Positions 8,350 to 46,862 of a DNA stretch of 64,000 nucleotides are shown one piece after another. Source of the DNA: an uncultured Clostridiaceae bacterium (GTDB lineage Bacteria; Bacillota; Clostridia; TANB77; CAG-508); the NCBI GenBank assembly GCA_946493085.1, contig CAMMAC010000001.1, forward strand, positions 2,593 through 66,592, written 5' to 3'. Position 1 is the first letter of the stretch. The number at the start of each line of letters is the position of its first letter. The translations under genes were made by a program, and so were the position numbers. The notes below the pieces were generated by a model. That model was not told the DNA's origin. It worked only from the letters and a program-made list of their open reading frames with translations, and did not search any database.

Positions 8350-8598
8350 ATGACAAACACAAATATCACAAATTTTAGAAAAGATATTTATGAATTATTA
8401 GAAACAACTATAAAGTATAATGAACCAATTAACGTTTCTACGAAAAATGGAAATGCAATCGTATTGTCTGAAGAAGATTACAATGGATTAATAGAAACTG
8501 TGAATTTATTAAATATACAAGGCATGAAAGAAAAATTAATAAAAGGAAAAGAAGAAAAAATAGAAAATTGTATTTCAGAAGAAGAGGTGGAATGGTAA
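8350..8598 (+). CDS. yefM: Type II antitoxin, Phd/YefM family
   Basis: 82 aa. The N-terminal ITNFRKDIYELLE...EPINVSTKNGNAIVLSEEDYNGLIETVNLL matches the YefM fold. Its stop overlaps the start of the toxin gene. Confidence 0.8.
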   Translation: MTNTNITNFRKDIYELLETTIKYNEPINVSTKNGNAIVLSEEDYNGLIETVNLLNIQGMKEKLIKGKEEKIENCISEEEVEW

Positions 8599-8864
8599 TG
8601 TATAAAGTAATTTATACAAAAATGGCAACAAAAGATATACCAAAATTGAAATCTAATCATTTAGATAAAAAAGCATTAGCGCTAATAGAAGTTATAAAGA
8701 ATAATCCATTCCAAACTCCACCACCATATGAAAAATTAGTAGGTGTTTTACAGGGACTATATTCCAGAAGAATAAATATAAAACATAGATTAATCTATCA
8801 AGTTTATGAGGAAGAAAAAATAGTTAAGATTATTAGTTTATGGACACACTATGAAAATATATAA
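8598..8864 (+). CDS. yoeB: Type II toxin, YoeB/Txe family (mRNA interferase)
   Basis: MYKVIYTKMATKDIPKL...LQGLYSRRINIKHRLIYQV...IISLWTHYE; YoeB-like RelE-superfamily toxin (family assignment from sequence resemblance). The RBS GAGGTGG lies 7 nt upstream of the ATG at 8598 (TAATG overlap with yefM). Confidence 0.8.
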   Translation: MYKVIYTKMATKDIPKLKSNHLDKKALALIEVIKNNPFQTPPPYEKLVGVLQGLYSRRINIKHRLIYQVYEEEKIVKIISLWTHYENI

Positions 8865-8935
8865 AATAAAAAAGTAGCAAAATTTCGAAAGAAGACGGCT
8901 ACTTTTTTATTTTCTTAATAAAAGTGTGATTATAA

Positions 8936-9074
8936 ATAGAAAATTACATAAAATAGATTGCTATAAGACAAGAATAAGTAGAAAATAATAAAAAGGTATA
9001 TTGAAATTAACCGAAAGGTAATATATAATAAAAGTATAGAGGATAAAAAACATAAGAAAAAGGAGAGGACAAGA
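8936..9074 (+). promoter_or_regulatory. Type-1 conserved leader of the variable family (copy A): upstream motif AAATTACATAAAATAGATTGC plus the promoter TTGAAA(9001-9006)-17-TATAAT(9024-9029)
   Basis: The same ~140-bp segment recurs at 9977, 11489, 12030, 12739 and, diverged, at 23078. It contains a near-consensus -35/-10 pair and an AGGAGAGGA RBS. Confidence 0.7.
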
Positions 9075-9884
9075 ATGAAAAAAGAGAATGGAATTACTAT
9101 GATAACGTTAGCAGTAACCATCATTGTACTAATTATACTAGCAGGAGTAAGTATCAATATGCTAGTAGGAGAGAATGGAATTATTACAATGGCACAAAAA
9201 GCCAAAGAAAATATAGAACTAGCACAAATAGAGGAAGAAAAACAATTAAATAATTTATATGGAGAATTAGTAAATGCAGGAGAAGGAATTTTTGATGATT
9301 CTATGGGAGATGCTATAGAAAAATTAGAAAATTTCAAAAAAATAATAGCAACAGCCATAACTAATGAGGGAGTAGCAACGTCCGAAACAGATACAGCAGA
9401 AACTATGTCAGAGAATATAGCAAAAATATTAGAAGAAAGAACAAAAGATGCCACAGCATCGGAGTCAGATATACTAGAAGGAAAAACAGCTTATATAAAA
9501 GGACAATTAGTAACAGGAACAAATAAGGGATATGATGTAGGATATAATGAAGGTTACGAAGCTGGAAAAAGTGGGAATGCTTTGACTTTTACAATAGCAA
9601 TGACAACAGCACCAAATATACCATCGGGAGCAGCAGCTTATCCAATACAAAATTTAAATATAGAAAATTACAGTACAATAACAGTTACAGGTAGTTTTTC
9701 TAGTCAATCAGATGGAGGTTCTTTTCAAATTTTAGCAGATGATAAGGTTATTTCAGATACAATAAGAAATAATTCTAGTATTAATATATCTTATGATATA
9801 TCTAATTATAGTAAACTTTCTCTTTACATATATGCAGGATATACTAGAGTTGTAAATGCCAATTTAAATGTACAAATACAATAA
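9075..9884 (+). CDS. Variable-family protein, copy A (intact): pilin-like N-terminal anchor, conserved ~150-aa N-module, unique beta-rich C-terminal domain
   Basis: MKKENGITMITLAVTIIVLIILAGVSINMLVGENGIITMAQKAKEN..., about 60-75% protein identity to copies E, F and D across the first ~150 aa (by-eye alignment of the ORF-track translations). The C-terminal GYDVGYNEGYEAGKSG... domain is unique. Confidence 0.75.
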   Translation: MKKENGITMITLAVTIIVLIILAGVSINMLVGENGIITMAQKAKENIELAQIEEEKQLNNLYGELVNAGEGIFDDSMGDAIEKLENFKKIIATAITNEGVATSETDTAETMSENIAKILEERTKDATASESDILEGKTAYIKGQLVTGTNKGYDVGYNEGYEAGKSGNALTFTIAMTTAPNIPSGAAAYPIQNLNIENYSTITVTGSFSSQSDGGSFQILADDKVISDTIRNNSSINISYDISNYSKLSLYIYAGYTRVVNANLNVQIQ

Positions 9885-9976
9885 TAATTTAAATAGAATA
9901 ATTTTTTAAAAGAAAGTAGCAGTCTTTATCTATAGATTGTTATTTTTTGACATTAAGAACTATAAAAACGATAAAT

Positions 9977-10077
9977 AAATTACATAAAATAAATTGCAAA
10001 ATAAAAGGAATAAATAGAAAATAAAATATAAGAATCGAGTCTTAGAAGTAAAAAACATAAAAAGAGGAGAAAAGGGA
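9977..10077 (+). promoter_or_regulatory. Type-1 leader remnant (copy B) lacking the -35/-10 block
   Basis: AAATTACATAAAATAAATTGC is present, but the TTGAAATTAACC...TATAAT segment is replaced by unrelated sequence. Confidence 0.5.
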
Positions 10078-10269
10078 ATGATTACAGAAAAAGGAATTAC
10101 AATGGTGGCTTTGGCAGTAACCATCATTGTACTAATTATACTAAGGAAATATAAATTGGAGTACAAATACGATAACAGCTATAGTAAATCGACTAGAATG
10201 TCCATTATATGTACAATTATTTACAATATTATAAAACAAAAGAATAGTATAATAGAAAAGAAAAAGTAG
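10078..10269 (+). pseudogene. Variable-family copy B: truncated remnant (only ~22 aa of the conserved N-terminus, then frame decay)
   Basis: MITEKGITMVALAVTIIVLIIL then unrelated residues. There is a 27-nt stretch identical to copy A (GCAGTAACCATCATTGTACTAATTATACTA). Confidence 0.65.
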
Positions 10270-10280
10270 TAATAATATCA

Positions 10281-11363
10281 CTACTTTTTTTCTTGTTTAA
10301 CGAAATTAGATTTTTTTATAGGAATTAAGAATAAGGCTCCTACTATAATAGGAAGGTAGAAAGTATAAATACGCCAAAATAAGATGGCTAAATTGATAGT
10401 TCCAGTTTTAAAAATAGATTGAAAGATAAGTAAAAATCCACCTTCTGCACCAAGACCAGCACCAGGAGTAGGAGTAATGGTCATAATCATTAATAAAAAG
10501 GCTTGTGCCGGAATAATTTGCCAATAGTTAATCCCAGAATTACCAAAAGCACGATATACCATATAAGTAATGGCATAATAGCATAAACTTTGCAGAGTTG
10601 CCCATATAAAAATTTGAAGAAGAATTTGCTTCTGGGTAAAGATAAATTTAAATTGATTACTAAAATGAATAATGCTATTAGTTACTTTTTCTTTCGCTTT
10701 ATTAAAATCTTTTATTATTTTTAATTTTGCCAAAAGTTTTACCCATGGTAAAGTAATTATAATAATGAGTTTCGGGTAAATTCCAGCAAATACAATAACC
10801 ACTACTAAAACAATATTAGCAACAAATCCTAAAATAGCGACCCATAGAAAATCTTGGAATAAATTCAGAAAAAAGGGTAATTCCCATAATACAACAATAA
10901 CTGTAAAAATTAATAAAGCTAATTGTGTTACAATGAATTTCATAGTTAAAATAGACATTGATTCACTAGCTCTTTTTCCTGTTTTGGTAAGAGCATAAGC
11001 CTGCATTGGCTGTCCACCAGAGGAAAATGGAGTTACATTATTAAATAACTGTCCTATCATATTTACTTTAATAGAATTTGTAAATTTTTGAGCGGGATAA
11101 AATTTTTTTAGTGGAATATGTAAGCACATAGTGTCGCAAAACCAAAGTCCAAGTAGAGCAAGAAGTCCCCAGCATACCCAAGTGTAATCTACTTGTTGTA
11201 ATACTAAAATAATATTATCTATACCATCTACCATAAACATATAAATTAATAAACCAATAAAAATAACTGCAATCAAAATAAAATTAAAAATAGTTACTTT
11301 TTTGCTAGTAGTTTTAATTTCTTGCTCTTCTGTTTCTATTTGAGAATTTTTATTGTCCTCCAT
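10281..11363 (-). CDS. Flippase-like / lysylphosphatidylglycerol-synthase-TM-domain (UPF0104) membrane protein
   Basis: 360 aa with about 8 TM helices. The pattern of conserved Gly/Pro/Trp positions (GQLFNNVTPFSSGGQPMQAYAL) is typical of the LPG_synthase_TM / flippase-like family. The RBS AGGAGGATT lies on the minus strand upstream. Confidence 0.7.
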   Translation of the reverse strand: MEDNKNSQIETEEQEIKTTSKKVTIFNFILIAVIFIGLLIYMFMVDGIDNIILVLQQVDYTWVCWGLLALLGLWFCDTMCLHIPLKKFYPAQKFTNSIKVNMIGQLFNNVTPFSSGGQPMQAYALTKTGKRASESMSILTMKFIVTQLALLIFTVIVVLWELPFFLNLFQDFLWVAILGFVANIVLVVVIVFAGIYPKLIIIITLPWVKLLAKLKIIKDFNKAKEKVTNSIIHFSNQFKFIFTQKQILLQIFIWATLQSLCYYAITYMVYRAFGNSGINYWQIIPAQAFLLMIMTITPTPGAGLGAEGGFLLIFQSIFKTGTINLAILFWRIYTFYLPIIVGALFLIPIKKSNFVKQEKK

Positions 11364-11488
11364 GTTATAGAATCCTCCTTTATTATCTTATTATTTATAT
11401 AAAAAAATAGAGAAAAAGTCAATCGAAATAAGAAAATCTTCATGAAATTTGAAAATACTGGGAAAAAATAAAATATAAGTATAAAAAT

Positions 11489-11559
11489 AAAATTACATAA
11501 AGTAAATTATAAAATGAAAAAATTGGTAGAAAATAATAAAGAAGAATATTGATGTTAAC
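11489..11559 (+). promoter_or_regulatory. Type-1 leader (copy C) with promoter TTGATG-17-CATAAT
   Basis: AAATTACATAAAGTAAATT motif plus the TTAACCAAAAAGTAATACATAAT promoter block. Confidence 0.5.
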
Positions 11560-11893
11560 CAAAAAGTAATACATAATATTTGATAATTTAAAGCAAGAAT
11601 TTCAAGATTTTAAAAAACAAATTGCAGAAGCATTAACCAATAAAGGTGTACAAACAGAAGAAACAGATTCTATAGAAAGCATAGTGGAGAATATTGGTAA
11701 GCAGGGTGGTAGTGGAATACAACGAATAAAAATAGGAAGTTCTTATAATGCTTCTACAGGTATTTTAACTATTTCTAGTACAAGTAATTCTGGACATTTT
11801 GATAAGGGAGATGGAAATGGAGGTATTATGTGGACAGAAGATTGGTCATGTAGTATTCAATTTGATGTTTATGCATTTATACCAAATGTATGA
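11560..11893 (+). pseudogene. Variable-family copy C: 5'-deleted copy (no start codon and no TM anchor) that retains the end of the conserved module fused to a unique C-terminal domain
   Basis: In-frame translation ...NLKQEFQDFKKQIAEALTNKGVQTEETDSIESIVENIGKQ aligns to LENFKKIIATAITNEGVATSETDTAETMSENIAKIL of copy A. The tail GSGIQRIKIGSSYNASTGILTISSTSNSGHF...WSCSIQFDVYAFIPNV is unique. Confidence 0.6.
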
Positions 11894-12029
11894 AACATGA
11901 TTTTTTAAATTAACCTCGAGTGATAAAGGAAAAATTTCTAGTCACTAGAGGTAATTTTTTATGCCTATTAGATATTACTAAATTACGAAGTAAGAAAAAA
12001 TTTATTAAAAAAGTAATAAGATAGTATGA

Positions 12030-12167
12030 AAATTACATAAAATAGATTGCTAAAAGAAAAAGTTAAATAGAAAATAAGTATATGAAAAGATTTAATATTA
12101 ACCAAAAGGTAATACATAAAAAGTATTAAAATAAAAGATAGGAAACATAAGAAAAAGGAGAAAAGCA
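12030..12167 (+). promoter_or_regulatory. Type-1 leader (copy D), promoter partly degraded (TTAATA / TACATA)
   Basis: AAATTACATAAAATAGATTGC is exact. The -35/-10 are weakened relative to copies A and E. Confidence 0.5.
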
Positions 12168-12652
12168 ATGAAGAGAGAAAATGGAATTACCATGATAACG
12201 TTAGCCGTAACCATTATTGTGTTAATTATCTTAGCAGGAGTAAGTATCAATATGTTGGTAGGAGATAATGGGATTATTACAATGGCGCAAAAAGCCAAGG
12301 AAAATATGGAACTAGCACAAATAGAAGAAGAGGAACAAATGAACAGTTTATATGAAGAATTAGCTAATGGGGCGAAGGAATTTTTGACGATTCTATGGGA
12401 GATGCTATAGAGAAATTAGAAAATTTTAGAAAGATAATAGCAACAGCTATAACGAATGAAGGAGTTGCTACAGCAGAAACAATGGCAGAGAATATTAGTA
12501 AAATATTAGAAGCAAGGACAAAAGATGTAACAGCTACAGCAGAAGATATAGCAGAAGGAAAAACAGCCTATGTAAATGGAGAAAAGATAGTAGGGACTGA
12601 AAAATATATTCATCTTATCCTAATACTGCAGGTATATATTATTGGAAATTAG
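12168..12652 (+). pseudogene. Variable-family copy D: frameshifted within the conserved module (two ORFs, 12168-12410 and 12395-12652), with the C-terminal domain missing
   Basis: MKRENGITMITLAVTIIVLIILAGVSINMLVGDNG... The frame breaks at ...EELANGAKEFLTILWEML and resumes as MGDAIEKLENFRKIIATAITNEGV.... It ends soon after DIAEGKTAYVNGEKIVGTEK. Confidence 0.7.
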
Positions 12653-12738
12653 AATACTAATCGAAATTAAAACTTTAGAAGGCAGAGAGAAATCTCTGTT
12701 TTATTTTTTGAGAAAAAAGAAAGTATAAAAATAAAAAG

Positions 12739-12880
12739 AAAATTACATAAAATTAATTGCATAGCAAAAGAAATAAATAGAAAATAAAATAAAGAAATGT
12801 TGAAATTAACCAAAAGATAAGATATAATAAAAGTATAAAGAATAGAAAAAATGGAAAACATAAGAAAAGGAGAAAACGTA
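12739..12880 (+). promoter_or_regulatory. Type-1 leader (copy E) with consensus TTGAAA(12799-12804)-17-TATAAT(12822-12827)
   Basis: Same architecture as the copy A leader. Confidence 0.7.
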
Positions 12881-13642
12881 ATGAAAAAAGAAAATGGAAT
12901 TACAATGATTACTTTAGCAGTGACGATAATTGTGTTAATTATATTAGCGGGAGTAAGTTTAAATATGACGGTAGGGGAAAGTGGAATTATCACTATGGCA
13001 CAGAAAGCAAAAGAAAACATGGAACTGGCAAAGGTAGAAGAAGAGGAACAGTTAAATAGTTTGTATGAAGAATTAGAAAAAGGAGGAGAAGGAATTTTCG
13101 ATGATTCTATGGCAGATGCTATAGAAAAACTAGAAAATTTTAGAAAGATAATAGCAACAGCTATAACGAATGAAGGAGTAAGTACAGCAAGCACAGATTC
13201 AGCAGAAACCATGGCAGAAAATATAGGTAAAATATTGCAGGAAAGAACCAAGGATGCAACTGCTATGGCGGATGATCTATCTAATGGAGTAACAGCCTAT
13301 GTAAATGGACAGAAAATAACAGGAAATGGAATGGATGTAAATAATAGTTATAATAATGGATATAATGTGGGGTATCAGGACGGAAAACAACAAAGTAACG
13401 TGAAGCAATATTCTATGTCCTTTAGTATAGGAATTAATACTACGCAAACGTATAATTTAGATAATTATGTGCAAGGAGGAAATTTATTAACTGCTTCTAT
13501 TACTTCTTGGTCAGAACCATATACAGTTAAAGCAACTTCGTTTCAATTAACGGTAAATGGAAATGTTGTTACAATTAAATATTCTAGTGGTGATGTTGGA
13601 TTTGCTGGTAGTGGTACTATCGTATTTTATTATTATGAATAG
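12881..13642 (+). CDS. Variable-family protein, copy E (intact)
   Basis: MKKENGITMITLAVTIIVLIILAGVSLNMTVGESGIITMAQKAKEN... The C-terminus YNNGYNVGYQDGKQQS...LTVNGNVVTIKYSSGDVGFAGSGTIVFYYYE is related to copy A only in the GY(D/N)VGY motif. The RBS AAAGGAGAAAA precedes the ATG at 12881. Confidence 0.75.
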   Translation: MKKENGITMITLAVTIIVLIILAGVSLNMTVGESGIITMAQKAKENMELAKVEEEEQLNSLYEELEKGGEGIFDDSMADAIEKLENFRKIIATAITNEGVSTASTDSAETMAENIGKILQERTKDATAMADDLSNGVTAYVNGQKITGNGMDVNNSYNNGYNVGYQDGKQQSNVKQYSMSFSIGINTTQTYNLDNYVQGGNLLTASITSWSEPYTVKATSFQLTVNGNVVTIKYSSGDVGFAGSGTIVFYYYE

Positions 13643-13743
13643 GAAAATACTATAATTTCTACAAAAAATCACCTTAGATTTTGTGCTAAAACAAGTTTAT
13701 TTTTGAATTGTTCAGATGAATAATATTAAAATAGAACTAAAAT

Positions 13744-13776
13744 AAAAAATGGTAGGTTATTACCTACCATTTTTTA
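13744..13776. terminator. Bidirectional intrinsic terminator between the variable-family island and the por operon
   Basis: AAAAAATGGTAGGTtattACCTACCATTTTTT: a perfect 8-bp stem flanked by A-run and T-run. Confidence 0.75.
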
Positions 13777-14736
13777 CTAATCATTATTTTTATTTGTAAT
13801 TTCTTCTAAATCTAATAGTTCTTGCCATCTCTTATCTACTTCCTCTTGGAAAGCTTCTATCATCCACTCATTGCCAGGTTTAAACATGTGTTTAAATCTT
13901 CTTTGTGGTTTCAAAAATTCTTCAATAGGAAGCTTTTTAGCAGGTTTATAAGTAATTTTATATTTACCGTCTACTACTTCATATAAAGGCCAATAGCAAG
14001 TATCTATTGCCAATTTATTAATTTGCATTAACATATCTGTTGGATAACCCCATCCTCTAGGGCATGGAGCAAGTACATTTAAGAAAGTTGGTCCTTCTGT
14101 GTAAATTGCTTTTTCAGCTTTTTCATATAAATCTTTAAAATTATTTACTCCAATGGTTTGTGCAACATAAGGTAAATGATGAGATGCCATAATTTCTGTT
14201 AAATCTTTTCTGGATTGCATTTTACCAGGAATAACATCACCTGCTGGAGATGTTGTAGTATCTGCAAAACGAGGTGTAGCAGAAGAACGTTGAATACCTG
14301 TATTCATGTAAGCACCATTATCATAGCATACATAAGTCATATCATGACCTCTTTCCATGGCACCAGATAAAGATTGAATACCAATATCATAAGTACCTCC
14401 ATCTCCACCAAAAGTGATAAATTTTGTATGCTTATCTTCTGGTAATTTTCCTTGTCTCTTCATTGCTTTGTAAGCAGCTTCTGCACCAGAACAAGTAGCA
14501 GCTGCACATTCAAAAGCAGTGTGAATATAAGAAGTGGTCCAAGAAGTATAAGGATAAATACAAGTAGAAACTTCCATACATCCTGTAGCATTAGAAACAA
14601 CAGCATGATCCTCTTCTTTTAATGCTCTCATAATCATTCTTGCAACAGGAGGAGCACCACAACCTGCACACATTCTATGTCCAGCAGTAAATCTTGCTGG
14701 TTTATTAGCAACAATTTCTTTTACATTATAAGCCAT
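13777..14736 (-). CDS. 2-oxoacid:ferredoxin oxidoreductase, beta (TPP-binding) subunit
   Basis: GDGGTYDIG TPP motif. CAGCGAPP Cys cluster at the N-terminus. Last gene of a four-gene gamma-delta-alpha-beta operon. Confidence 0.85.
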   Translation of the reverse strand: MAYNVKEIVANKPARFTAGHRMCAGCGAPPVARMIMRALKEEDHAVVSNATGCMEVSTCIYPYTSWTTSYIHTAFECAAATCSGAEAAYKAMKRQGKLPEDKHTKFITFGGDGGTYDIGIQSLSGAMERGHDMTYVCYDNGAYMNTGIQRSSATPRFADTTTSPAGDVIPGKMQSRKDLTEIMASHHLPYVAQTIGVNNFKDLYEKAEKAIYTEGPTFLNVLAPCPRGWGYPTDMLMQINKLAIDTCYWPLYEVVDGKYKITYKPAKKLPIEEFLKPQRRFKHMFKPGNEWMIEAFQEEVDKRWQELLDLEEITNKNND

Positions 14737-15935
14737 TATTTAGCACCTCCTTTTAATCCAAAATAACGATAAGGATTCTCTACTTTTCCAGTAGATGCAA
14801 TTTCTTGTAAATCCTGGTATACACCTTCAATTTCTTTTGTAGTAGTATCTCTACCACCAATACCATAAACGTAATTTACAGTAGGAACTTGCATACCATT
14901 GGTATATAAACCAGAAGTAACATCTGTAAATAAAGCTCCACCACAAGCATTTAGGCTTTCTGCTTTATCTAAAACAGCAAGAGCTTTTACATGAGAAACA
15001 GCTTTTGCAATTTCTTCAGCAGGGAATGGTCTAAATACACGAAGTTTTAGAAGACCAGCCTTTACGCCTTGCTCTCTTAAAGCATCTACTACTACTTTGG
15101 TTGTTCCAGCAGTAGAATTCATACAAATAATGGCAATTTCTGCATCTTCTAATTTATATTCTTCAAAGAAACTATATTTTCTACCAGTCATCTTTTCAAA
15201 ATCTTCTGCTACTTCTAAGATTATCTTTTTAGCAGCACGCATTGCATTTGCTTGTTGGTATTTATGTTCAAAAAGATAAGCTTGTAAATCCATTGGACCA
15301 ACAGCAATTGGCTCTTTATCATTTAAAAGATAATGCTCTGGTTTGTATTCTCCTACAAAATTCTTTACTTTGTCATCCTCTATTAATTCAATATTTTCAA
15401 TAGAATGAGAAGTAATAAATCCATCTTGGCAAACACATAAAGGAAGTCTAACATCTTTATGTTCTGCAATACGATGGGCCATAATTAAATTATCGTAAGC
15501 TTCTTGGTTGTTTTCTGAAAACAACATAATCCATCCACTATCACGAATACCCATAGCATCAGAATGGTCATTGTGAATATTCAGTGGACCAGAAATAGCA
15601 CGGTTTACTAGAGGCATAACAATAGGAAGCCTTAAAGAAGAGGCAATATATACCATCTCCCACATTAAAGCAAGACCATTAGAAGAAGTAGCTGTCATGG
15701 CTCTTCCTCCAGCAGCTTCTGCACCAATGCAAGCACTCATAGCACTATGCTCACTTTCTACTGCCACAAACTCTGTATCTACTGTTCCATTACTAACAAA
15801 AGTAGAAAAATATTGTGGAATTTCAGTAGAAGGTGTAATAGGAAAAGCAGCAACAACATCTGGATTAATTTGCTTCATAGCAATAGCAGATGCTTCATTA
15901 CCACTTAAACGTTCTCTAATACTCATATTTTTCAT
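14736..15935 (-). CDS. 2-oxoacid:ferredoxin oxidoreductase, alpha subunit
   Basis: 399 aa transketolase-like domain. Overlapping stop/start with the beta subunit. Confidence 0.85.
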   Translation of the reverse strand: MKNMSIRERLSGNEASAIAMKQINPDVVAAFPITPSTEIPQYFSTFVSNGTVDTEFVAVESEHSAMSACIGAEAAGGRAMTATSSNGLALMWEMVYIASSLRLPIVMPLVNRAISGPLNIHNDHSDAMGIRDSGWIMLFSENNQEAYDNLIMAHRIAEHKDVRLPLCVCQDGFITSHSIENIELIEDDKVKNFVGEYKPEHYLLNDKEPIAVGPMDLQAYLFEHKYQQANAMRAAKKIILEVAEDFEKMTGRKYSFFEEYKLEDAEIAIICMNSTAGTTKVVVDALREQGVKAGLLKLRVFRPFPAEEIAKAVSHVKALAVLDKAESLNACGGALFTDVTSGLYTNGMQVPTVNYVYGIGGRDTTTKEIEGVYQDLQEIASTGKVENPYRYFGLKGGAK

Positions 15936-15946
15936 CCTTTCTATCT

Positions 15947-16243
15947 TTAAATTTCTTTCATTTCAATTGCACCGAATGGGCAAGTTTTAGCACAAACACC
16001 GCAACCTTTGCAATAATCATAATTAAAATCCGTTCTTTTTTGATCTTTTCCTACTGGAATTGCGTTGTCTGGGCAAACTGGGAAACAAAGACCGCATTGT
16101 TTACATTTTTCAGGAATAAAAACGGGTTTTACACTTCTCCAGTCACCTGTTTTAAAACAAACAGAATTACCAGCTTCGTAGATATCTCCACCTGGTGTCA
16201 TTTCCTGCCATGGAGTATCTTTATTAATTTTTACGTCAGCCAT
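15947..16243 (-). CDS. 2-oxoacid:ferredoxin oxidoreductase, delta subunit (2x[4Fe-4S] ferredoxin)
   Basis: CKQCGLCFPVCP and CKGCGVCAKTCP motifs. Confidence 0.85.
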   Translation of the reverse strand: MADVKINKDTPWQEMTPGGDIYEAGNSVCFKTGDWRSVKPVFIPEKCKQCGLCFPVCPDNAIPVGKDQKRTDFNYDYCKGCGVCAKTCPFGAIEMKEI

Positions 16244-16258
16244 TTTCTATTTCCTCCT

Positions 16259-16846
16259 TTACATTTCTACTTCATGAACATCTTTTAAAGCCATCTCTAA
16301 AGCCTTCATGTTACCTTCAATTACTTCAGGTTTTTTTGCAAATTTGTGCTTAAAAGAACCTTGCATATCATTTATAAATTCTTCTTCCGTCATAATGCCA
16401 GAGACTTTAACAATAGCTGCAAGCATTGGTGTGTTTGGGAAATACTTGCCAAGTGCTTCTTCTGATATTTTTTTCGCATCTACTGTATACACTTTTCCTT
16501 TATAACCATGTAAAACAGATTTTAAATAAGTAGCATCTTTTGTGGTGTTAATAACAATAGCACCGGTTTCTTTTAAACCATCTGTTACAGGAACAGACTC
16601 TAATAAAGAATCATCTACAACAACTACATAATCTGGTTCATAAATATTACTATGAATACGAATAGGAGAGCTACTAATACGGTTGTATGCAGTAATAGGA
16701 GCACCCATTCTCTCTGGACCATATTCCGGAAAACCTTGAATATATTTGCCAGTATTAAAAGCTGCATCAGCAAGAAGTAGAGAAGCAGTTTTTGCACCTT
16801 GTCCGCCTCTACCATGCCATCTAATTTCAATAATGTTATCCATCAC
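16259..16846 (-). CDS. 2-oxoacid:ferredoxin oxidoreductase, gamma subunit
   Basis: IEIRWHGRGGQGAKTAS motif. The start was placed at the internal Met (MDNIIE..) downstream of the RBS AAAGGA; the ORF extends to 16885. Confidence 0.8.
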   Translation of the reverse strand: MMDNIIEIRWHGRGGQGAKTASLLLADAAFNTGKYIQGFPEYGPERMGAPITAYNRISSSPIRIHSNIYEPDYVVVVDDSLLESVPVTDGLKETGAIVINTTKDATYLKSVLHGYKGKVYTVDAKKISEEALGKYFPNTPMLAAIVKVSGIMTEEEFINDMQGSFKHKFAKKPEVIEGNMKALEMALKDVHEVEM

Positions 16847-16961
16847 ATTCATTCCTTTCTCTTTGTATTTTCCTACTCTTTTCAAAACATATTGCTAGTC
16901 TTAAGTATATGCTTTGAGGCAAAAATTGTCAAGAGATTTTAGGCAACTACCGAATGGTCAG

Positions 16962-17024
16962 GTGTCCATTTAAGTCAGTCTTTTTTGAGACATGTCTCAT
17001 TTAACCCTGACTTAAATGGACATT
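16962..17024 (-). repeat. REP-like composite palindromic repeat (full copy, minus orientation)
   Basis: Outer 15-bp inverted repeat GTCCATTTAAGTCAG...CTGACTTAAATGGAC around the self-complementary core GAGACATGTCTC. The reverse complement aligns nearly end to end with 46682-46743. Confidence 0.7.
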
Positions 17025-17145
17025 AGTCGAATGATGTCGAAAAATAACTGATTGTACATTAGTATTGTTAAATCACATACAATATGATATATTAGTATAT
17101 GGAAATAATCATAAAGACCAACACTAAGTACAATAGTACATAGTA

Positions 17146-17184
17146 AAAGAGTAGGAAATGTTGTGGATTCCTACTCTTTTTTGT
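17146..17184 (+). terminator. Orphan intrinsic terminator in the por / NlpC-P60 intergenic region
   Basis: AAAAGAGTAGGAAatgttgtggaTTCCTACTCTTTTTTG: 9-bp stem plus T-run. No plus-strand CDS lies upstream. Confidence 0.55.
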
Positions 17185-17429
17185 TCCTTGTATTATCTCT
17201 TTAATAGAGCTATGAATACAAAATCAATATATTAATATAGACCAAATATTAATATATTGTGAATACCAATAGCAATGAAAGTTACTTGTTATTCACTACA
17301 GATATATTACTACATTTTTTTTGATATGTCAAACATTATATTGAAAAAGAAGGCAAAACGGTTGACTTTTTATCTTCTTTTAGTATATACTTAAGTCCGA
17401 AATGAAAGAAAAAAAGGAGCAGATGATAC

Positions 17430-18788
17430 ATGTTATCGAAAGCGAAAAATTTTATGCTACTATTAGGAATGACAAGCATTTTTATACTTTTATGGACAGC
17501 TAGTAGCTATGCTACAACAGGAATTGTAAATACAGAAACATTGAAATTAAGAAAAGCCCCTTCTACTAGTTCAGAAATATTAGATTTACTAGACTATAAT
17601 GAGAAGTTAGAAATAACAGGCGAAGAAGGTGAATGGTACAGTGTAGTACATGAAGGAACAGCAGGTTATGTGAGCAAGCAATATATGAGAGTAGAAGAGG
17701 AAGAAGAGACACAAACGAATACACAAGTAAGTGAAACGGTAGCAACTACCGAGGTAGAAAATGTACTGGAAAATACTACTACAAATACAACAACAGAAAC
17801 TACAAGCGCAGAGGTTACTCAGCCAGAAGAGACAACTACGCCAACACAAAATGTATTAAAAGAAGATACACAAATTAGCATCTTACCTTTAATACAAGCT
17901 AGTAAAATAGGAACAGAAAAGAAAGGAACTAGTGTAGAAATAATCACAACGGCTGGAAATTGGTGTTACATTGCGACAGAAAATCTAAATGGATGGGTAA
18001 GACAGGATGCTTTAGAAACTGAAACACCACAAACGACTACTCCAGAAGAAACTACACCAACTACAGAGGAGACTCCAGCTACAACCGAACAAGAAACAGC
18101 AATAGAAGAAACAACTATGTATGTAACAGGTTCTTCGGTTTATGTAAGATCAGGACCTGGAACAAACTATGAAATTGTTACCTCTCTTATTAGAGGAAAT
18201 TCCGTAAAGGCAGTTGCAGAAACAAGCCAGTGGTATAAAGTAGAAGTAAATGGACAAACCGGTTATATTTCCAAAAGCTTAGTATCTACTACAAGACCAG
18301 AAACTACATCTAGAGGTACAGAAACCTCTAGAACGCAAGACGAAGAAGAGCAGGTAAGTAGTACACCACAAGAAGAAAATACACAAGTAGAACAAACAGT
18401 AGTACAAACAAGTACTGGTCAGCAAATTGTAGATTATGCGAAAAACTATTTAGGATGCAAGTATGTTTATGGAGGTTCTGGACCAAATACATTTGATTGT
18501 TCCGGATTTACGATGTATGTTTACCAAAAATTTGGAGTAACACTTAGTCATTCTGCTAGAGCACAATCTAAGGTAGGAACAGCAGTAGAAAAAGAAAACT
18601 TACAATTAGGAGATTTAGTATTTTTTAAAGATTACGAGACCATGGACGGAATAGGTCACTGTGGTATTTATATAGGAGATGGCAACTTTATTCATGCCTC
18701 TTCTGGAACAGGATATTGTGTAAAAATCTCTACCTTATTATCTGGTAGTTATGCTACAAGATATGAAACAGCAAGAAGAGTTATTTAA
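17430..18788 (+). CDS. Secreted cell-wall hydrolase: signal peptide, two SH3b domains, Thr/Glu-rich linkers, C-terminal NlpC/P60 endopeptidase
   Basis: SH3b-like ...LKLRKAPSTSSEILDLLDYNEKLEI..WYSV... is present twice. The NlpC/P60 catalytic region is DCSGFTMYVYQKFG...H...GHCGIYIGDG. Confidence 0.85.
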   Translation: MLSKAKNFMLLLGMTSIFILLWTASSYATTGIVNTETLKLRKAPSTSSEILDLLDYNEKLEITGEEGEWYSVVHEGTAGYVSKQYMRVEEEEETQTNTQVSETVATTEVENVLENTTTNTTTETTSAEVTQPEETTTPTQNVLKEDTQISILPLIQASKIGTEKKGTSVEIITTAGNWCYIATENLNGWVRQDALETETPQTTTPEETTPTTEETPATTEQETAIEETTMYVTGSSVYVRSGPGTNYEIVTSLIRGNSVKAVAETSQWYKVEVNGQTGYISKSLVSTTRPETTSRGTETSRTQDEEEQVSSTPQEENTQVEQTVVQTSTGQQIVDYAKNYLGCKYVYGGSGPNTFDCSGFTMYVYQKFGVTLSHSARAQSKVGTAVEKENLQLGDLVFFKDYETMDGIGHCGIYIGDGNFIHASSGTGYCVKISTLLSGSYATRYETARRVI

Positions 18789-18847
18789 AAAAAGAAAAAT
18801 GGGGCAATACATAAAAAGGAAAATGTTTTCCTTTTTAGAAAGAAGCG

Positions 18848-21280
18848 GTGAAGAAAATGCAAATTGCTCTATTTGGTTGGATATTAGGATTGATAGGGGG
18901 ACTATACTTACCAAAATTAAGTATAGTCTTTTTTCTATGCTTTTTATTAGGAATACTACTATTAAAAAATGTAAAGAAAAAATATAGCATGCTTAGGATT
19001 GTACAAAGGCATATTTCCTATCAAAAAATTATCGTCATGGCAATAAGTTTTATCCTAGCCTTTCTACTTATACAAGAAAAAGAAAGAGATTATAGCCAAA
19101 GATACGCAGAGGTAATGGGGGAGGCAGAAGTGATAGGCACCATTGTGAGCATGCCAAAAGAAAAAGAATATAGAACGGATTATACCATGCAAGTAGAGAG
19201 CATAAATGGACAAATTTTGCAAAAGAATACCAAAATTTTGTTACAGCTAAAAAAGGGAAAACAAGCACAAAAGAATTTAGTTTATGGAAATAAAATAAAA
19301 GTAAAAGTAGAATTAAAAATGCCAACAGAAGCTAGAAATACGGGAGGGTTTGATTACAGTTTTTATTTAAAAACAAAGCAAATTTATGCAATTGCTATAG
19401 GTAAAGAAGATGATGTTACTCTTTTAAAAAACGAAAATAGCAATTTGTGGCAAAAAGCAGTAACGGCGGTAAAGCAGTCTATTATAGAACAAGTAAAGAA
19501 AGTATTGCCACAAGAGGAAGCAGACTTATTTATAGGCATATTAATTGGAGAAAGACAAGGGATACAAGAAGAAATCGAAAAGAATTTTAAAAATAGTAGT
19601 TTAACTCATCTTCTAGCTGTTTCTGGTTCTCATGTAGCTTATATTTTGATGGGAGTTACTTTTGCTGTAACGCAGCTAAAAGGAGACAAAAAAATAGGGA
19701 AAATAGGAACCATTTTATTTCTATTCTTTTTCATGGAATTAACAGATAGAACTGCATCGGTAGTAAGAGCGTGTATTATGGCAATGTATGCTATAGTAGC
19801 GAATTTATGTCATAAAAAAATAGATTGGCTAGGTAGTATTTGCTTTAGCTTGTGGTGGATATTGTTAGAAAATCCGTATAGTTTATGGGATACCTCCCTT
19901 ATTTTGTCTTATGGAGGAACAATAGGCATTTTATTATTTATTCCTCTTTTTCAGAAAAAGCAAAATCCAAACGAGGGGAAAAATCATAAACTATTAGAAA
20001 AGTGTAAAAATTATCTAAAGGAAAGTTTCATAATTACTATTAGTGCCAACTTAATTTTACTTCCCATTATGGCGTATTTATTTTATACTTTATCTTTTAC
20101 CTTTTGGATAGGTAATTTGCTGGCTACACCGCTCATGGAAGGAATTATATTCATAGGTATTGCATTTTTGGCAAGTGCCTATTTATGCATGCCTTTAGCA
20201 ATAATAATAGCTGTGTCATTAAAATGCCTGTTACAATTATTACTGCTAGTAGCAAAAGTATGTGCAAACCTACCTTTCTCTAATATAAGTGTAATAAGAC
20301 CACCCGTGGTTGGTATACTTTTCTACTACATATTTCTATTTTTGTGGATAGGATATGGTAGATTGTCCCAAAGAAGAAAAGCACAAATAAAAGAAATGTA
20401 TAGAAAAAAGAGAAAGACCGTTTTGATAAGTTTCCTACTCATGGTTGTTCTTCTAACATTGCTATATAAAGTACCAGGAGAGTTAGAAATCTTTTTTATA
20501 GATGTTGGTCAAGGAGACAGCATGTTAGTGATAACACCACAAAAGAAAACTTTGCTAGTAGATGGAGGAGGGAGTAAAAGCACAAGTTTTGATGTGGGCG
20601 AGCAAACGCTACTTCCTTACTTATTGAATAAAGGAATTAAAACTATCGATTATATGATGCCATCTCATTTTGATGAAGACCACGTGCAAGGATTATTTAC
20701 TATTCTAGAAAAATTAACCGTAAAAAAGGTAATTGTAGCAGAGCAAAAAGTAGATTCAGAAAATTATCAAAAATTTATGAAATTCGTAGAAGAAAAAAAT
20801 ATACAAACTATATGGGTAAAACAGGGAGATAAAATTTTATTAGAAAAAGGAGTAAACTTAGATATTTTATGGCCAAAAACAGAATGGATAGCAGAAAATC
20901 CACTCAATAATAATGCTATTGTAGCAAATTTGCATTATGGGAAATTTAGTTTATTATTCACAGGAGATATAGAAGAAATAGCAGAAAAAGAAATTCTACA
21001 ATGCTATCAAAATACAGAGTTATGCAAGGCTACTGTGTTAAAAGTAGCCCATCACGGCTCAAAATCCTCTAGTATACAGTCTTTTTTAACAATGATAAAA
21101 CCAAAAATTGCTTTAATTGGTGTGGGAGAAACGAACACCTTTGGACATCCAAATGAGGGTGTTTTAGAAAGGTTAGAAAAGATAGGTGCCAAAATTTATA
21201 GAACAGATGAAAATGGAGAAATCAGTCTAAAAGTAAACAAAGAAGGAAAAATAAAAATAAATACCAAAATTGGAAAATAA
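18848..21280 (+). CDS. comEC: DNA internalization competence protein ComEC/Rec2 (DUF4131, competence domain, metallo-beta-lactamase domain)
   Basis: 810 aa polytopic membrane region followed by an MBL-fold domain (FIDVGQGDSMLV...HFDEDHVQG...AHHGSKSS). Confidence 0.85.
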   Translation: MKKMQIALFGWILGLIGGLYLPKLSIVFFLCFLLGILLLKNVKKKYSMLRIVQRHISYQKIIVMAISFILAFLLIQEKERDYSQRYAEVMGEAEVIGTIVSMPKEKEYRTDYTMQVESINGQILQKNTKILLQLKKGKQAQKNLVYGNKIKVKVELKMPTEARNTGGFDYSFYLKTKQIYAIAIGKEDDVTLLKNENSNLWQKAVTAVKQSIIEQVKKVLPQEEADLFIGILIGERQGIQEEIEKNFKNSSLTHLLAVSGSHVAYILMGVTFAVTQLKGDKKIGKIGTILFLFFFMELTDRTASVVRACIMAMYAIVANLCHKKIDWLGSICFSLWWILLENPYSLWDTSLILSYGGTIGILLFIPLFQKKQNPNEGKNHKLLEKCKNYLKESFIITISANLILLPIMAYLFYTLSFTFWIGNLLATPLMEGIIFIGIAFLASAYLCMPLAIIIAVSLKCLLQLLLLVAKVCANLPFSNISVIRPPVVGILFYYIFLFLWIGYGRLSQRRKAQIKEMYRKKRKTVLISFLLMVVLLTLLYKVPGELEIFFIDVGQGDSMLVITPQKKTLLVDGGGSKSTSFDVGEQTLLPYLLNKGIKTIDYMMPSHFDEDHVQGLFTILEKLTVKKVIVAEQKVDSENYQKFMKFVEEKNIQTIWVKQGDKILLEKGVNLDILWPKTEWIAENPLNNNAIVANLHYGKFSLLFTGDIEEIAEKEILQCYQNTELCKATVLKVAHHGSKSSSIQSFLTMIKPKIALIGVGETNTFGHPNEGVLERLEKIGAKIYRTDENGEISLKVNKEGKIKINTKIGK

Positions 21281-22043: not shown

Positions 22044-22168
22044 TTTTAAAAATAAAGTCGAAAATTATGGAAATAAGTAACTACTAAAAAGCAAAAATAA
22101 AGAGTAAAGAAAAATAGAGAAACGATATAATCCTCTCTGTAAAATTAGATAGCAGGGAGGATAAAATT
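22044..22168 (+). promoter_or_regulatory. Type-2 conserved leader (copy F): GTCGAAAATTATGGAAATAAGTAAC...TATAAT followed by an SD-sequestering hairpin (22132-22160)
   Basis: CCTCTCTG pairs with CAGGGAGG (one G-U wobble), occluding the RBS GGGAGGA. The same architecture occurs at 22915-23010 and 46744-46862. Confidence 0.6.
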
Positions 22169-22906
22169 ATGCCAAAACAAAAGAGTGGAGAAGAAGGAAT
22201 TACTATGATAACTTTAGCAGTAACAATCGTAGTATTAATTATTTTGGCAGGAGTTAGTCTAAATGCAACTGTAGGAGAAAATGGAATTATCTCGCAGGCA
22301 CAAAAAGCAAGGGAGAATATAGAGATAGCAAGAGAAGAAGAAGAGATACAATTAAATAATTTGTATGAAGAATTAGCAAAGGGAGGAGAAGGGATTTTTG
22401 ATGATTCTATGACAGATGCCATAGAAAAATTAGAAAACTTTAGAAAAATAATAGCAACAGCCATAACAAATGAAGGAGTTACTACAGTAGAAACAGATAC
22501 AGCGGAAACAATGGCAGAAAATATTAGTAAAATATTACAAGAACGAACAAAAGATGCAACAGCAACAGCAGAAGATATAGCAGAGGGAAAGACTGCTTAT
22601 GTGAATGGGAATAAAGTAGTTGGAACAGCTCATAATAGTGATGAAATTACTTTTTCAACGTTGTTAGTAAATTCAAGTTCTAGTAAATGTCTTATTGTTC
22701 CTTTAAATAAAAATTATAAAAATCTATCTATAACAAATATTTCAGGAGGAACAGGAGGCACAGGAACTGCAACTGTATATTTAGATGAAGTAGATAGCGG
22801 AACTTTTTATGCGGGAATGCCAGTTCCAATTGAATATGATTTAACAGATGTAGAAGAACTAAAGATTACTGGAAATCAAGTTTTCTTTACTCTAACAATT
22901 TTATAG
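22169..22906 (+). CDS. Variable-family protein, copy F (intact): N-terminal extension MPKQKSGEE, then the conserved module and a unique C-terminal domain
   Basis: GITMITLAVTIVVLIILAGVSLNATVGENGIISQAQKAREN...DIAEGKTAYVNGNKVVGT, then a unique tail (...ISGGTGGTGTATVYLDEVDSGTFYAGMPVPIEYDL...). Confidence 0.75.
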   Translation: MPKQKSGEEGITMITLAVTIVVLIILAGVSLNATVGENGIISQAQKARENIEIAREEEEIQLNNLYEELAKGGEGIFDDSMTDAIEKLENFRKIIATAITNEGVTTVETDTAETMAENISKILQERTKDATATAEDIAEGKTAYVNGNKVVGTAHNSDEITFSTLLVNSSSSKCLIVPLNKNYKNLSITNISGGTGGTGTATVYLDEVDSGTFYAGMPVPIEYDLTDVEELKITGNQVFFTLTIL

Positions 22907-23061: not shown

Positions 23062-23214
23062 AGTTTATATAATAACAAAATAACATAAAACGAATTGTAG
23101 TTAAAAAAGAAATAAGAGAAAATAAAAATAATACTTGATAATAGCCAAAAGGTAATGTACAATAAAGGTATAAATGTGAAAGAAATGGAAAACATAAGAA
23201 GAAGGAGTAAAAAA

Positions 23215-46743: not shown

Positions 46744-46862
46744 ACAAAGAAAAAAGTCGAAAATTATGGAAATAAGTAACCAGTAAAAAAGGAAAAGTAA
46801 AAGAGAAGAAAAAGCAAAGAAAGATATAATCCTCTTTATAAGAAAAAAGCAAGGAGGATAAG
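46744..46862 (+). promoter_or_regulatory. Type-2 leader (copy I) with TATAAT (46825-46830) and an SD-sequestering hairpin (46831-46858)
   Basis: CCTCTTT pairs with AAGGAGG(A) (includes a G-U wobble). Conserved block GTCGAAAATTATGGAAATAAGTAAC at 46756. Confidence 0.55.

Follow-up and report, generated by a model that had tools for sequence, protein, structure and literature searches.

A conserved 21-mer in the leaders of a multi-copy pilin-like gene family of an uncultured Clostridia bacterium, and its possible role in a second, upstream promoter

Described systems and the gene family

Tandem sigma-70/sigma-A promoters with an UP-type element are known from several bacterial genes, including the rRNA operons (P1/P2) and, with a phased A-tract promoter, Clostridium perfringens plc. 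An UP element is an A/T-rich tract at about −38 to −59, adjoining the −35 hexamer, which is contacted by the alpha-CTD of RNA polymerase. The DNA considered here is a stretch of 64,000 nucleotides (the window) of low-GC (~30%) chromosomal DNA from an uncultured Clostridia bacterium. It contains a gene family in which one class of leader (type 1) carries a putative weak promoter, P2, and, in some leaders, a near-consensus promoter, P1, downstream of it. Like the tandem promoters above, leaders with both would have two −35/−10 pairs in the same orientation before one gene, both with 17-nt spacers, an A-rich conserved stretch directly 5′ of the first −35, and a 5′ UTR predicted to be unstructured. 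Unlike them, their upstream box is invariant in sequence (ACATAAA) and the putative −10 of P2 starts with a conserved G; moreover, the pair is only 39–47 nt apart, and P1 is polymorphic between paralogues and strains.

Two types of variable surface-protein system also invite comparison. In Neisseria pilE/pilS, too, the pilin-like genes are present in multiple copies, some of them truncated, in which the 5′ part is conserved and the 3′ part varies, and a conserved non-coding element lies upstream. There, promoterless silent donors accompany one expressed locus; here, in contrast, the cassettes have their own promoter-like elements, ribosome-binding site (RBS) and terminator, and there is no single expression locus. 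The present element is A/T-rich and cannot form a G-quadruplex, and the mapped crossover lies elsewhere. Invertible promoters and shufflons (fimS, Bacteroides capsule promoters) share with this locus variable surface-protein genes and conserved short repeats near promoters, but here no inverted repeats flank the promoter, all motif copies lie on the + strand, and there is no recombinase among the neighbouring ORFs.

A further point of reference is the Tad-like pilus cluster of the uncultured gut order TANB77, which has been linked to immunotherapy response (Nat Commun 2024, PMC11680825). It encodes CpaB (358 aa), TadZ (231 aa), CpaE (280 aa), TadA (640 aa) and TadBC (693 aa), followed by pilin-like proteins of 143–237 aa with one N-terminal transmembrane helix each; several of the pilin-like genes are predicted by software to have their own promoters, and no motif is described (PMC11680825). 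The present locus resembles that of TANB77 in belonging to low-GC uncultured gut Clostridia and in having several pilin-like genes (PMC11680825). In the related locus L028, a family member lies directly 5′ of a cluster (10973–20819) encoding proteins of 302 (with a SAF domain), 232, 281, 424+234 and 693 aa, which continues with small proteins of 142–246 aa. These gene sizes mirror the TANB77 Tad-type cluster (PMC11680825), a likeness by sizes; Pfam detects only the SAF domain of the first gene. Unlike the TANB77 cluster proteins, the present family is multi-copy and dispersed and has a conserved 150-aa N-terminal part, and it is not among the seven proteins (932–938) analysed for TANB77 (PMC11680825). 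By this analogy, it is a lead that the family may form pilus subunits.

ENA gut-type metagenome assemblies also contain this locus, downstream of rpsG-fusA-tuf. The window contains eight family copies or remnants (A, B, X, C, D, E, F and H; Table 1), and a tRNA scan of the window found none. A Phd/YefM antitoxin and YoeB-type toxin pair (8350–8864) lies directly 5′ of the first cassette. The dead cassette X (11490–11893) consists of a type-1 leader that runs directly into the middle of a family gene, the N-terminal membrane segment having been deleted.

Family proteins range from 245 to 581 aa, and their genes form multi-copy arrays and are dispersed. At least 597 database relatives have the N-terminal ~150 aa in common and differ in their C-termini; none is informatively named, and comparison of the family proteins with Pfam, NCBIfam and PDB sequences assigned no family. 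The product of copy A begins with a prepilin-like hydrophobic segment, KENGITMITLAVTIIVLIILAGV. The class III signal of type IV prepilins consists of a G and then a hydrophobic helix with Glu at +5; in the family proteins, position +5 is T, A or S, not Glu. The Pfam model N_methyl matches the 581-aa copy only, and below threshold (17.3 bits vs a cut-off of 21.2). Residues ~65–185 of the proteins encoded at 9075–9884 and 22169–22906 weakly match phage PHROGs, including tail fibre (E down to 3e-9), and a viral search with the N-terminal half of the protein gave a single weak, unrelated match. From their sequences, the family proteins resemble a fibre-like scaffold anchored in the membrane and ending in a variable tip. 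The wider interest of the family is that these surface-type, pilin-like proteins with hypervariable C-termini form a large group still without annotation in uncultured low-GC gut Clostridia.

The 21-mer, its flanks and its occurrence in relatives

The leader of copy A carries the 21-mer AAATTACATAAAATAGATTGC on the + strand, with the position and sequence reported in an earlier note on this DNA. At up to three mismatches, the window holds four matches, at 8941 (0 mismatches), 9977 (1), 12030 (0) and 12740 (2), all on the + strand and none needing more than two mismatches; shuffles give an expectation of 0.03, and four matches were reached in 0 of 100. Two decayed 21-mers, in dead cassette X (11490–11510) and in truncated copy F (23078–23098), have four and five mismatches. 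The description of the motif as nearly invariant thus fits four of the six type-1 leaders and fails for the other two. The copies at 22169 and 46863 have a type-2 leader that lacks the motif (best matches with nine and eight mismatches). The near-consensus promoter was correctly described: the P1 elements of leaders A and D each match 11 of 12 positions. The distance from motif to promoter, given earlier as about 60 bp, is 60 nt from the start of the 21-mer to the start of the P1 −35.

Table 1. Coordinates of leader elements, family genes and neighbouring hairpins in the window.
Feature	Position	Strand	Description
Terminator-like hairpin with T-run	8866–8913	+	Closes the YoeB toxin gene upstream, so that a separate transcription unit begins beyond it; predicted RNA fold of −15.6 kcal/mol, z −5.2
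Equivalent hairpins before leaders B and D	9911–9948, 12679–12712		
21-mer of copy A	8941–8961	+	ACATAAA (8946–8952), 5-nt linker, first four bases of TTGCTA (8958–8963)
Putative P2 of copy A	8958–8986	+	−35 TTGCTA 8958–8963; 17-nt non-conserved spacer; −10 GAAAAT 8981–8986 in TAGAAAATAA
P1 of copy A	9001–9029	+	TTGAAA-17-TATAAT; spacer TTAACCGAAAGGTAATA conserved across lineages
5′-UTR/RBS block of copy A	9050–9065	+	ACATAAGAAAAAGGAG, conserved; P1-derived UTR predicted unstructured
Copy A gene	9075–9884	+	269 aa; prepilin-like N-terminal hydrophobic segment GITMITLAVTIIVLIILAGV, ~150-aa conserved region, variable C-terminus
Leader B	9977–10077	+	21-mer 9977–9997 (1 mismatch); putative P2 TTGCAA-17-GAAAAT 9994–10022; UTR block 10055–10069; no P1
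Copy B gene	10078	+	Truncated, 63 aa
Dead cassette X, leader	11490–11577	+	21-mer with 4 mismatches; P2 −35 lost (TTATAA); spacer with 1-nt deletion
P1 of cassette X	11549–11577	+	TTGATG-17-CATAAT
Leader C	12030–12167	+	21-mer 12030–12050 (0 mismatches); putative P2 12047–12075; UTR block 12145–12160
P1 of leader C	12092–12120	+	Decayed, TTAATA/CATAAA
Copy C gene	12168	+	Frameshifted in the window (80 + 85 aa); version in strain L034 intact, 409 aa
Leader D	12740–12880	+	21-mer 12740–12760 (2 mismatches); putative P2 TTGCAT-17-GAAAAT 12757–12785; UTR block 12858–12872
P1 of leader D	12800–12828	+	TTGAAA-17-TATAAT; gene start 12881
Copy E gene	22169		Type-2 leader without the motif
Leader of truncated copy F	23078–23214	+	Degenerate 21-mer (5 mismatches); ACATAAA, TTG and GAAAAT still in register
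P1 of leader F	23135–23163	+	TTGATA-17-TACAAT; UTR block 23192–23207
Copy F gene	23215		Truncated
Copy H gene	46863		581 aa; type-2 leader without the motif

Averaged over pairs of copies A, B, C and D, the identity of the 21-mer is 0.94. It is 0.55 for the 25 nt 5′ of it, 0.59 for the 17 nt 3′ of it, 0.95 for a second conserved block, TAGAAAATAA, which holds GAAAAT, and 0.80–0.81, below the 21-mer, for the coding 5′ end. The excess of conservation over the flanks, a check named beforehand, is therefore there. These values make it very unlikely that the 21-mer is conserved passively, merely as part of a recently duplicated or homogenised segment. The copies are paralogues of one locus, whose 5′ coding region could plausibly undergo gene conversion; yet immediate flanks of 55–59% beside a motif of 94% largely refute the idea, and gene-conversion tracts would not yield an identity mosaic of 0.55/0.94/0.59/0.95 in successive blocks on a scale of less than 20 nt. 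In addition, the motif decays in dead cassette X and persists in lineages with unrelated flanks, the 21-mer region being retained in at least four other related lineages. The earlier judgement that this is not drift is upheld: the 21-mer tops both flanks and coding sequence, and it is kept elsewhere with randomised flanks. Judged by sequence comparison, the 21-mer is real and under selection.

Leaders of relatives were taken from context look-ups of homologous proteins (arrays in other strains and lineages), and the L009 locus from a genome-collection scan with the 21-mer pattern. That scan, with a degenerate 21-mer, gave 20 single matches, among which L009 alone is a true homologous leader; the source species apparently has no representative in the collection. 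Metagenome and viral scans with the P1 block gave one true match, from the same species (L051), the others being chance matches. Type-1 leaders occur in the window species, its strain L034, L009, L025, L031/L032, L036 and once in L043; type-2 leaders precede copies E and H and occur in L028; type-3 leaders occur in L038, L042–44, L060 and L062. In all type-1 sources the order of blocks is ACATAAA(A)...ATTG(A/C), then GAAAAT(A), then TTGACA-TTAACCAAAAGGTAATA-TAAAAT, and finally GAAAACATAAGAAAAAGGAG.

In a gene-first sample of 38 non-redundant leaders, ACATAAA is the most enriched 7-mer (22 of 38 leaders, seven lineages; 4.8 expected, shuffle maximum 13), and GAAAATA and AGAAAAT are likewise enriched. 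Part of the leader set was gathered with ACATAAA as the anchor, a bias that the gene-first k-mer count mitigates and does not remove. Every one of the 24 distinct ACATAAA-N5-T[TG]G sites within 433 kb (the window and related loci) belongs to a family leader; two seeming exceptions in L025 precede family genes with a KAIT N-terminus.

A putative second promoter and its upstream box

Aligned without gaps on ACATAAA, 19 of 21 distinct type-1 leaders read ACATAAA-N5-TTGNNN-N17-GAAAAT. The 21 come from the window species, strain L034, L009, L025, L031/L036 and L043, and thus from at least five lineages. The two exceptions are L009_b, which has lost the −10, and cassette X, a dead cassette, which no longer has TTG or, owing to a 1-nt deletion, the spacing. 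Both the 25 nt upstream and the 17-nt spacer contain almost no information. The 21-mer and GAAAAT keep a fixed spacing, whereas 10, 11, 14, 16 or 18 nt separate GAAAAT from the P1 −35 in 13 leaders. The coupling of GAAAAT is therefore with the 21-mer and not with P1. A TTGNNN and a NANAAT exactly 17 nt apart, with a free spacer, are the signature of a sigma-70-type promoter. With a probability of about 0.5, we read the 21-mer as the upstream box plus −35 of a second, weaker promoter, P2, in tandem with the stronger P1.

The putative −35 hexamers of P2 (TTGAAA, TTGCAA, TTGCTA, TTGCCA) match four or five of six positions, with TTG in 19 of 21 leaders, and the spacer is of sigma-A type, being exactly 17 nt in 19 of 21 with a free sequence. 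The −10, GAAAAT, matches 4/6, with A2 and T6 present and a conserved G in first position, where sigma-A prefers T; variants are GATAAT and TAAAAT (5/6), and GAGAAT and CAAAAT (4/6). In the window, P2 scores 8/12, under the scanner threshold of 9/12; it reaches 9–10/12 in L031. In AT-rich DNA such as L031, promoter matches at 9/12 are at chance level (48 found vs 40.6 expected), so that the case for P2 rests on conservation and spacing.

Eight leaders lack P1, and most of these precede intact genes. One such gene, L031_a (362 aa), begins 81 nt downstream of the box and directly behind a strong terminator, and its sole promoter-like element is TTGAAA-17-GAGAAT, which the scanner also calls. L025_b has TTGAAA-17-GATAAT and L043 has TTGATT-17-TAAAAT; the only two −10 hexamers matching at least five of six positions are thus both in P1-less leaders. 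L031_b, L031_d and L025_a/c are further intact genes with this unit and no P1. In the window, the copy at 10078 was correctly described as keeping the 21-mer while the whole −35/−10 block is missing. The conclusion drawn from this, that such a copy is presumably silent, is doubtful, as related intact full-length genes have P1-less leaders straight after a terminator; copy B itself is in any case a truncated ORF of 63 aa.

Further support comes from outside the family. Of 19 unrelated matches to the 21-mer pattern elsewhere in Firmicutes, six, representing about four independent cases, precede genes outside the family and have TATAAT or TAAAAT exactly 17 nt after TTGCNN; such a hexamer follows 1.2% of the background TTGCNN sites of these loci. 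Sequences of this class in other Clostridia would therefore occupy the position of UP element plus −35. In the window, leaders A, B and D begin ~28 nt after a terminator hairpin, from which it follows that these cassettes need a promoter of their own.

It is extremely unlikely that the motif acts in RNA instead, within a transcript begun further upstream. Many leaders do have −10-like hexamers 6–15 nt 5′ of ACAT, but these lie at variable distance and have no −35; moreover, the terminator ~28 nt 5′ of leaders A, B and D, and directly 5′ of several related leaders, stands against such a transcript. An upstream promoter with these hexamers as its −10 was rejected on the same grounds. The fold is no better than that of shuffles (z −0.7), the leader RNA gives nothing significant (z −0.7 to −1.7), and Rfam gives zero matches at gathering thresholds and, with permissive settings, a single chance-level one (E = 3.6) at 10258–10289, between leaders. 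With unstructured leader RNA and no Rfam family, a role at the DNA level is more likely.

The stretch AAATTACATAAAATAGA is A-rich and lies at −52 to −36 relative to the putative P2 start; its invariant C and T are unexpected for a pure UP element. That ACATAAA is invariant down to its C and T goes beyond what the alpha subunit or an UP element would need and suggests a base-specific reader. Together with the conserved G of the −10, this invariance is unexplained by plain sigma-A and UP element, which leaves room for an activator overlapping the −35 or for an alternative sigma factor.

The 21-mer, or its ACATAAA core, might accordingly be an operator or activator site of a family-specific DNA-binding protein that coordinates the type-1 cassettes. 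The protein would work on P1 from about −85, on P2 in the manner of a class-II-type site, or on both, and the spacing to GAAAAT would mark a bipartite site. This reading is possible, though on the whole doubtful. ACATAAA is invariant across lineages while its neighbours vary, and the box is exclusive to family leaders within the 433 kb. ACATAA recurs in the UTR block of type-1 leaders and, as AACTTATAAACATAAT, in the type-3 box, at variable distance 3′ of a canonical promoter. The P1 spacer, conserved and partly palindromic, also hints at regulation. However, on inspection the motif has neither dyad nor direct-repeat symmetry; no regulator gene is linked to the family throughout, since an ECF-type sigma gene is adjacent in the lineage of L039 only and an Xre-type gene in that of L036 only; an 8-nt variation in the distance to P1 would break the helical phasing of a class-I activator; and P1-less genes keep the motif. 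The earlier suggestion of a regulator-binding site is thus possible for the ACATAAA half, while the 3′ TTGNNN is more economically read as a −35 hexamer that pairs, at a constant 17 nt, with the GAAAAT block, to which the earlier note does not draw attention.

As to alternative sigma factors, sigma-K-type −10 elements have the consensus CATA---TA in Bacillus subtilis, and CATAAAATA within the 21-mer could be the −10 of such a sporulation sigma factor. The window copies fit CATAnnnTA, and genes for SpoIIR, SpoIIP and BofA are present in related loci; across lineages, however, conservation is limited to CATAAA, the terminal TA varying (CATAAAACA, CATAAAAAG, CATAAATGT), there is no conserved −35 'AC' at fixed distance, and the upstream 25 nt are uninformative. 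This origin of the motif is very improbable. Several other candidates were rejected on inspection: sigma-54 (wrong spacing, GG absent, TTGA in relatives), the consensus sequences of sigma-H, sigma-D, sigma-B and ECF factors (no match), a CodY box (a half-site only, in the window species only), WalR/LytTR-type direct repeats (second half-site not conserved) and an antisense promoter (not conserved).

On the tandem-promoter reading, each type-1 cassette would be its own transcription unit, beginning with the 21-mer ~28 nt past the upstream terminator. The last bases of the 21-mer (TTGCTA, TTGCAA or TTGAAA) would serve as the −35 of a sigma-A-type P2, and GAAAAT inside TAGAAAATAA, exactly 17 nt downstream, as its sub-optimal −10. 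ACATAAA(A), 5 nt 5′ of the −35 (about −47 to −41), would provide an upstream contact, read either by the RNA polymerase alpha subunit (as an UP-like A-tract) or by an activator overlapping the −35. P1 (TTGACA/TTGAAA-17-TATAAT/TAAAAT), the stronger, near-consensus promoter, lies 39–47 nt further downstream (−35 to −35) and would be present in some leaders and absent from others through small indels. P2 would then be the basal or regulated promoter of every cassette, boosted in some by P1; at such spacing, polymerase footprints on P2 and P1 would overlap, leading to competition. We infer the firing of P2, the position of its start site and the identity of the ACATAAA reader from sequence features.

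The leader element is most likely an interesting but fairly ordinary piece of gene-control DNA, that is, a promoter region and not a new mechanism. The architecture, a conserved basal promoter with a family box plus a strong, strain-variable promoter, can help in reading metatranscriptomes of these uncultured organisms, in predicting which cassettes are expressed, and in designing expression constructs.

P1 variation, cassette exchange and other leader types

P1 is the variable element of the leaders. In two strains of one species, the same gene occurs without P1 (L031, 6823–6945) and with it (L032, 905–1071), the two leaders differing by an indel of 44 nt with the direct repeat TAAGAAGAT at its boundaries. 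In the window, copy B (9972–10080) has lost P1 in an analogous way relative to copy D, and there are more indels between P1 and the UTR block. Since P1 is present or absent between strains and between paralogues, it can be regarded as a gain/loss module, with P2 as the constant part; P2 would presumably be the older promoter of the family. Gain and loss of P1 could act as a heritable switch between high and low expression. Taken further, ACATAAA might be the box of a dedicated transcription or sigma-like factor that coordinates the variable family in TANB77-like uncultured gut Clostridia, perhaps with only part of the cassettes expressed at once, the box being reused in the UTR block and type-3 leaders and the short-repeat indels of P1 providing the heritable high/low switch; this extended scheme is speculative and rather unlikely.

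Conservation is unusual for a promoter spacer. That of P1, 17 nt long (TTAACCAAAAGGTAATA; window 9007–9023; L009, L031, L036), is conserved across lineages and contains an imperfect inverted repeat, ATTAACC/GGTAAT, and may be an operator within P1.

Cassette number and content vary by strain (window 8860–9900 vs L034 5495–7760; L002 9886–10521). In L034 there is one more cassette, of 292 aa; copy C is intact there (409 aa), and the last cassette differs. Between the window and L034 there is a one-cassette difference, in which unit A corresponds to the leader of L034 unit 1 joined to the 3′ part of L034 unit 2; the crossover lies within an identical stretch, 9010–9400, which extends from P1 to the N-terminal coding region and is 3′ of the 21-mer. 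As far as can be read from these two strains, the mapped crossover is ordinary homologous recombination via the conserved 5′ coding region and does not involve site-specific recombination at the motif.

The earlier note had also proposed a recombination site, and the 21-mer might in principle serve cassette shuffling or antigenic variation, either site-specifically or as an initiator of gene conversion. Points in favour of this are the multiple copies of the family, conserved in their 5′ part and variable in the 3′ part, and the differences in cassette content between strains. The copies are, however, direct repeats only, with no inverted partner; no recombinase gene adjoins the cassettes in the window; each cassette has its own promoter and terminator, hence there is no single expression site; and the sole mapped crossover lies downstream of the motif. 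The proposal is not borne out, and such a function is scarcely credible.

The other leader types have features of their own. Type-3 leaders have a canonical TTGAC(T/A)-17-TAAAAT, followed 14–20 nt later by a conserved box, (A)GTAATAACTTATAAACATAATATT. In L039 and L040 (8986–9468), a gene for an ECF-type sigma factor (Sigma70_r2 + r4_2, 160 aa) lies directly 5′ of a family gene; this sigma gene is truncated in two other strains (L038, L041).

Type-2 leaders (window 22064–22168 and 46763–46862; L028 upstream of 8238 and 10001) contain GATATAAT, directly followed by a 5′-UTR hairpin. In the predicted fold of this hairpin, CCUCUCUG...CAGGGAGG, the ribosome-binding site is base-paired to the 5′ end of the mRNA; folding energies are −15.7 kcal/mol (z −4.4) and −8.9 kcal/mol (z −2.9). 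The stem sequences show compensatory differences between copies, and an inverted repeat, GTCCCA...TGGGAC, lies upstream.
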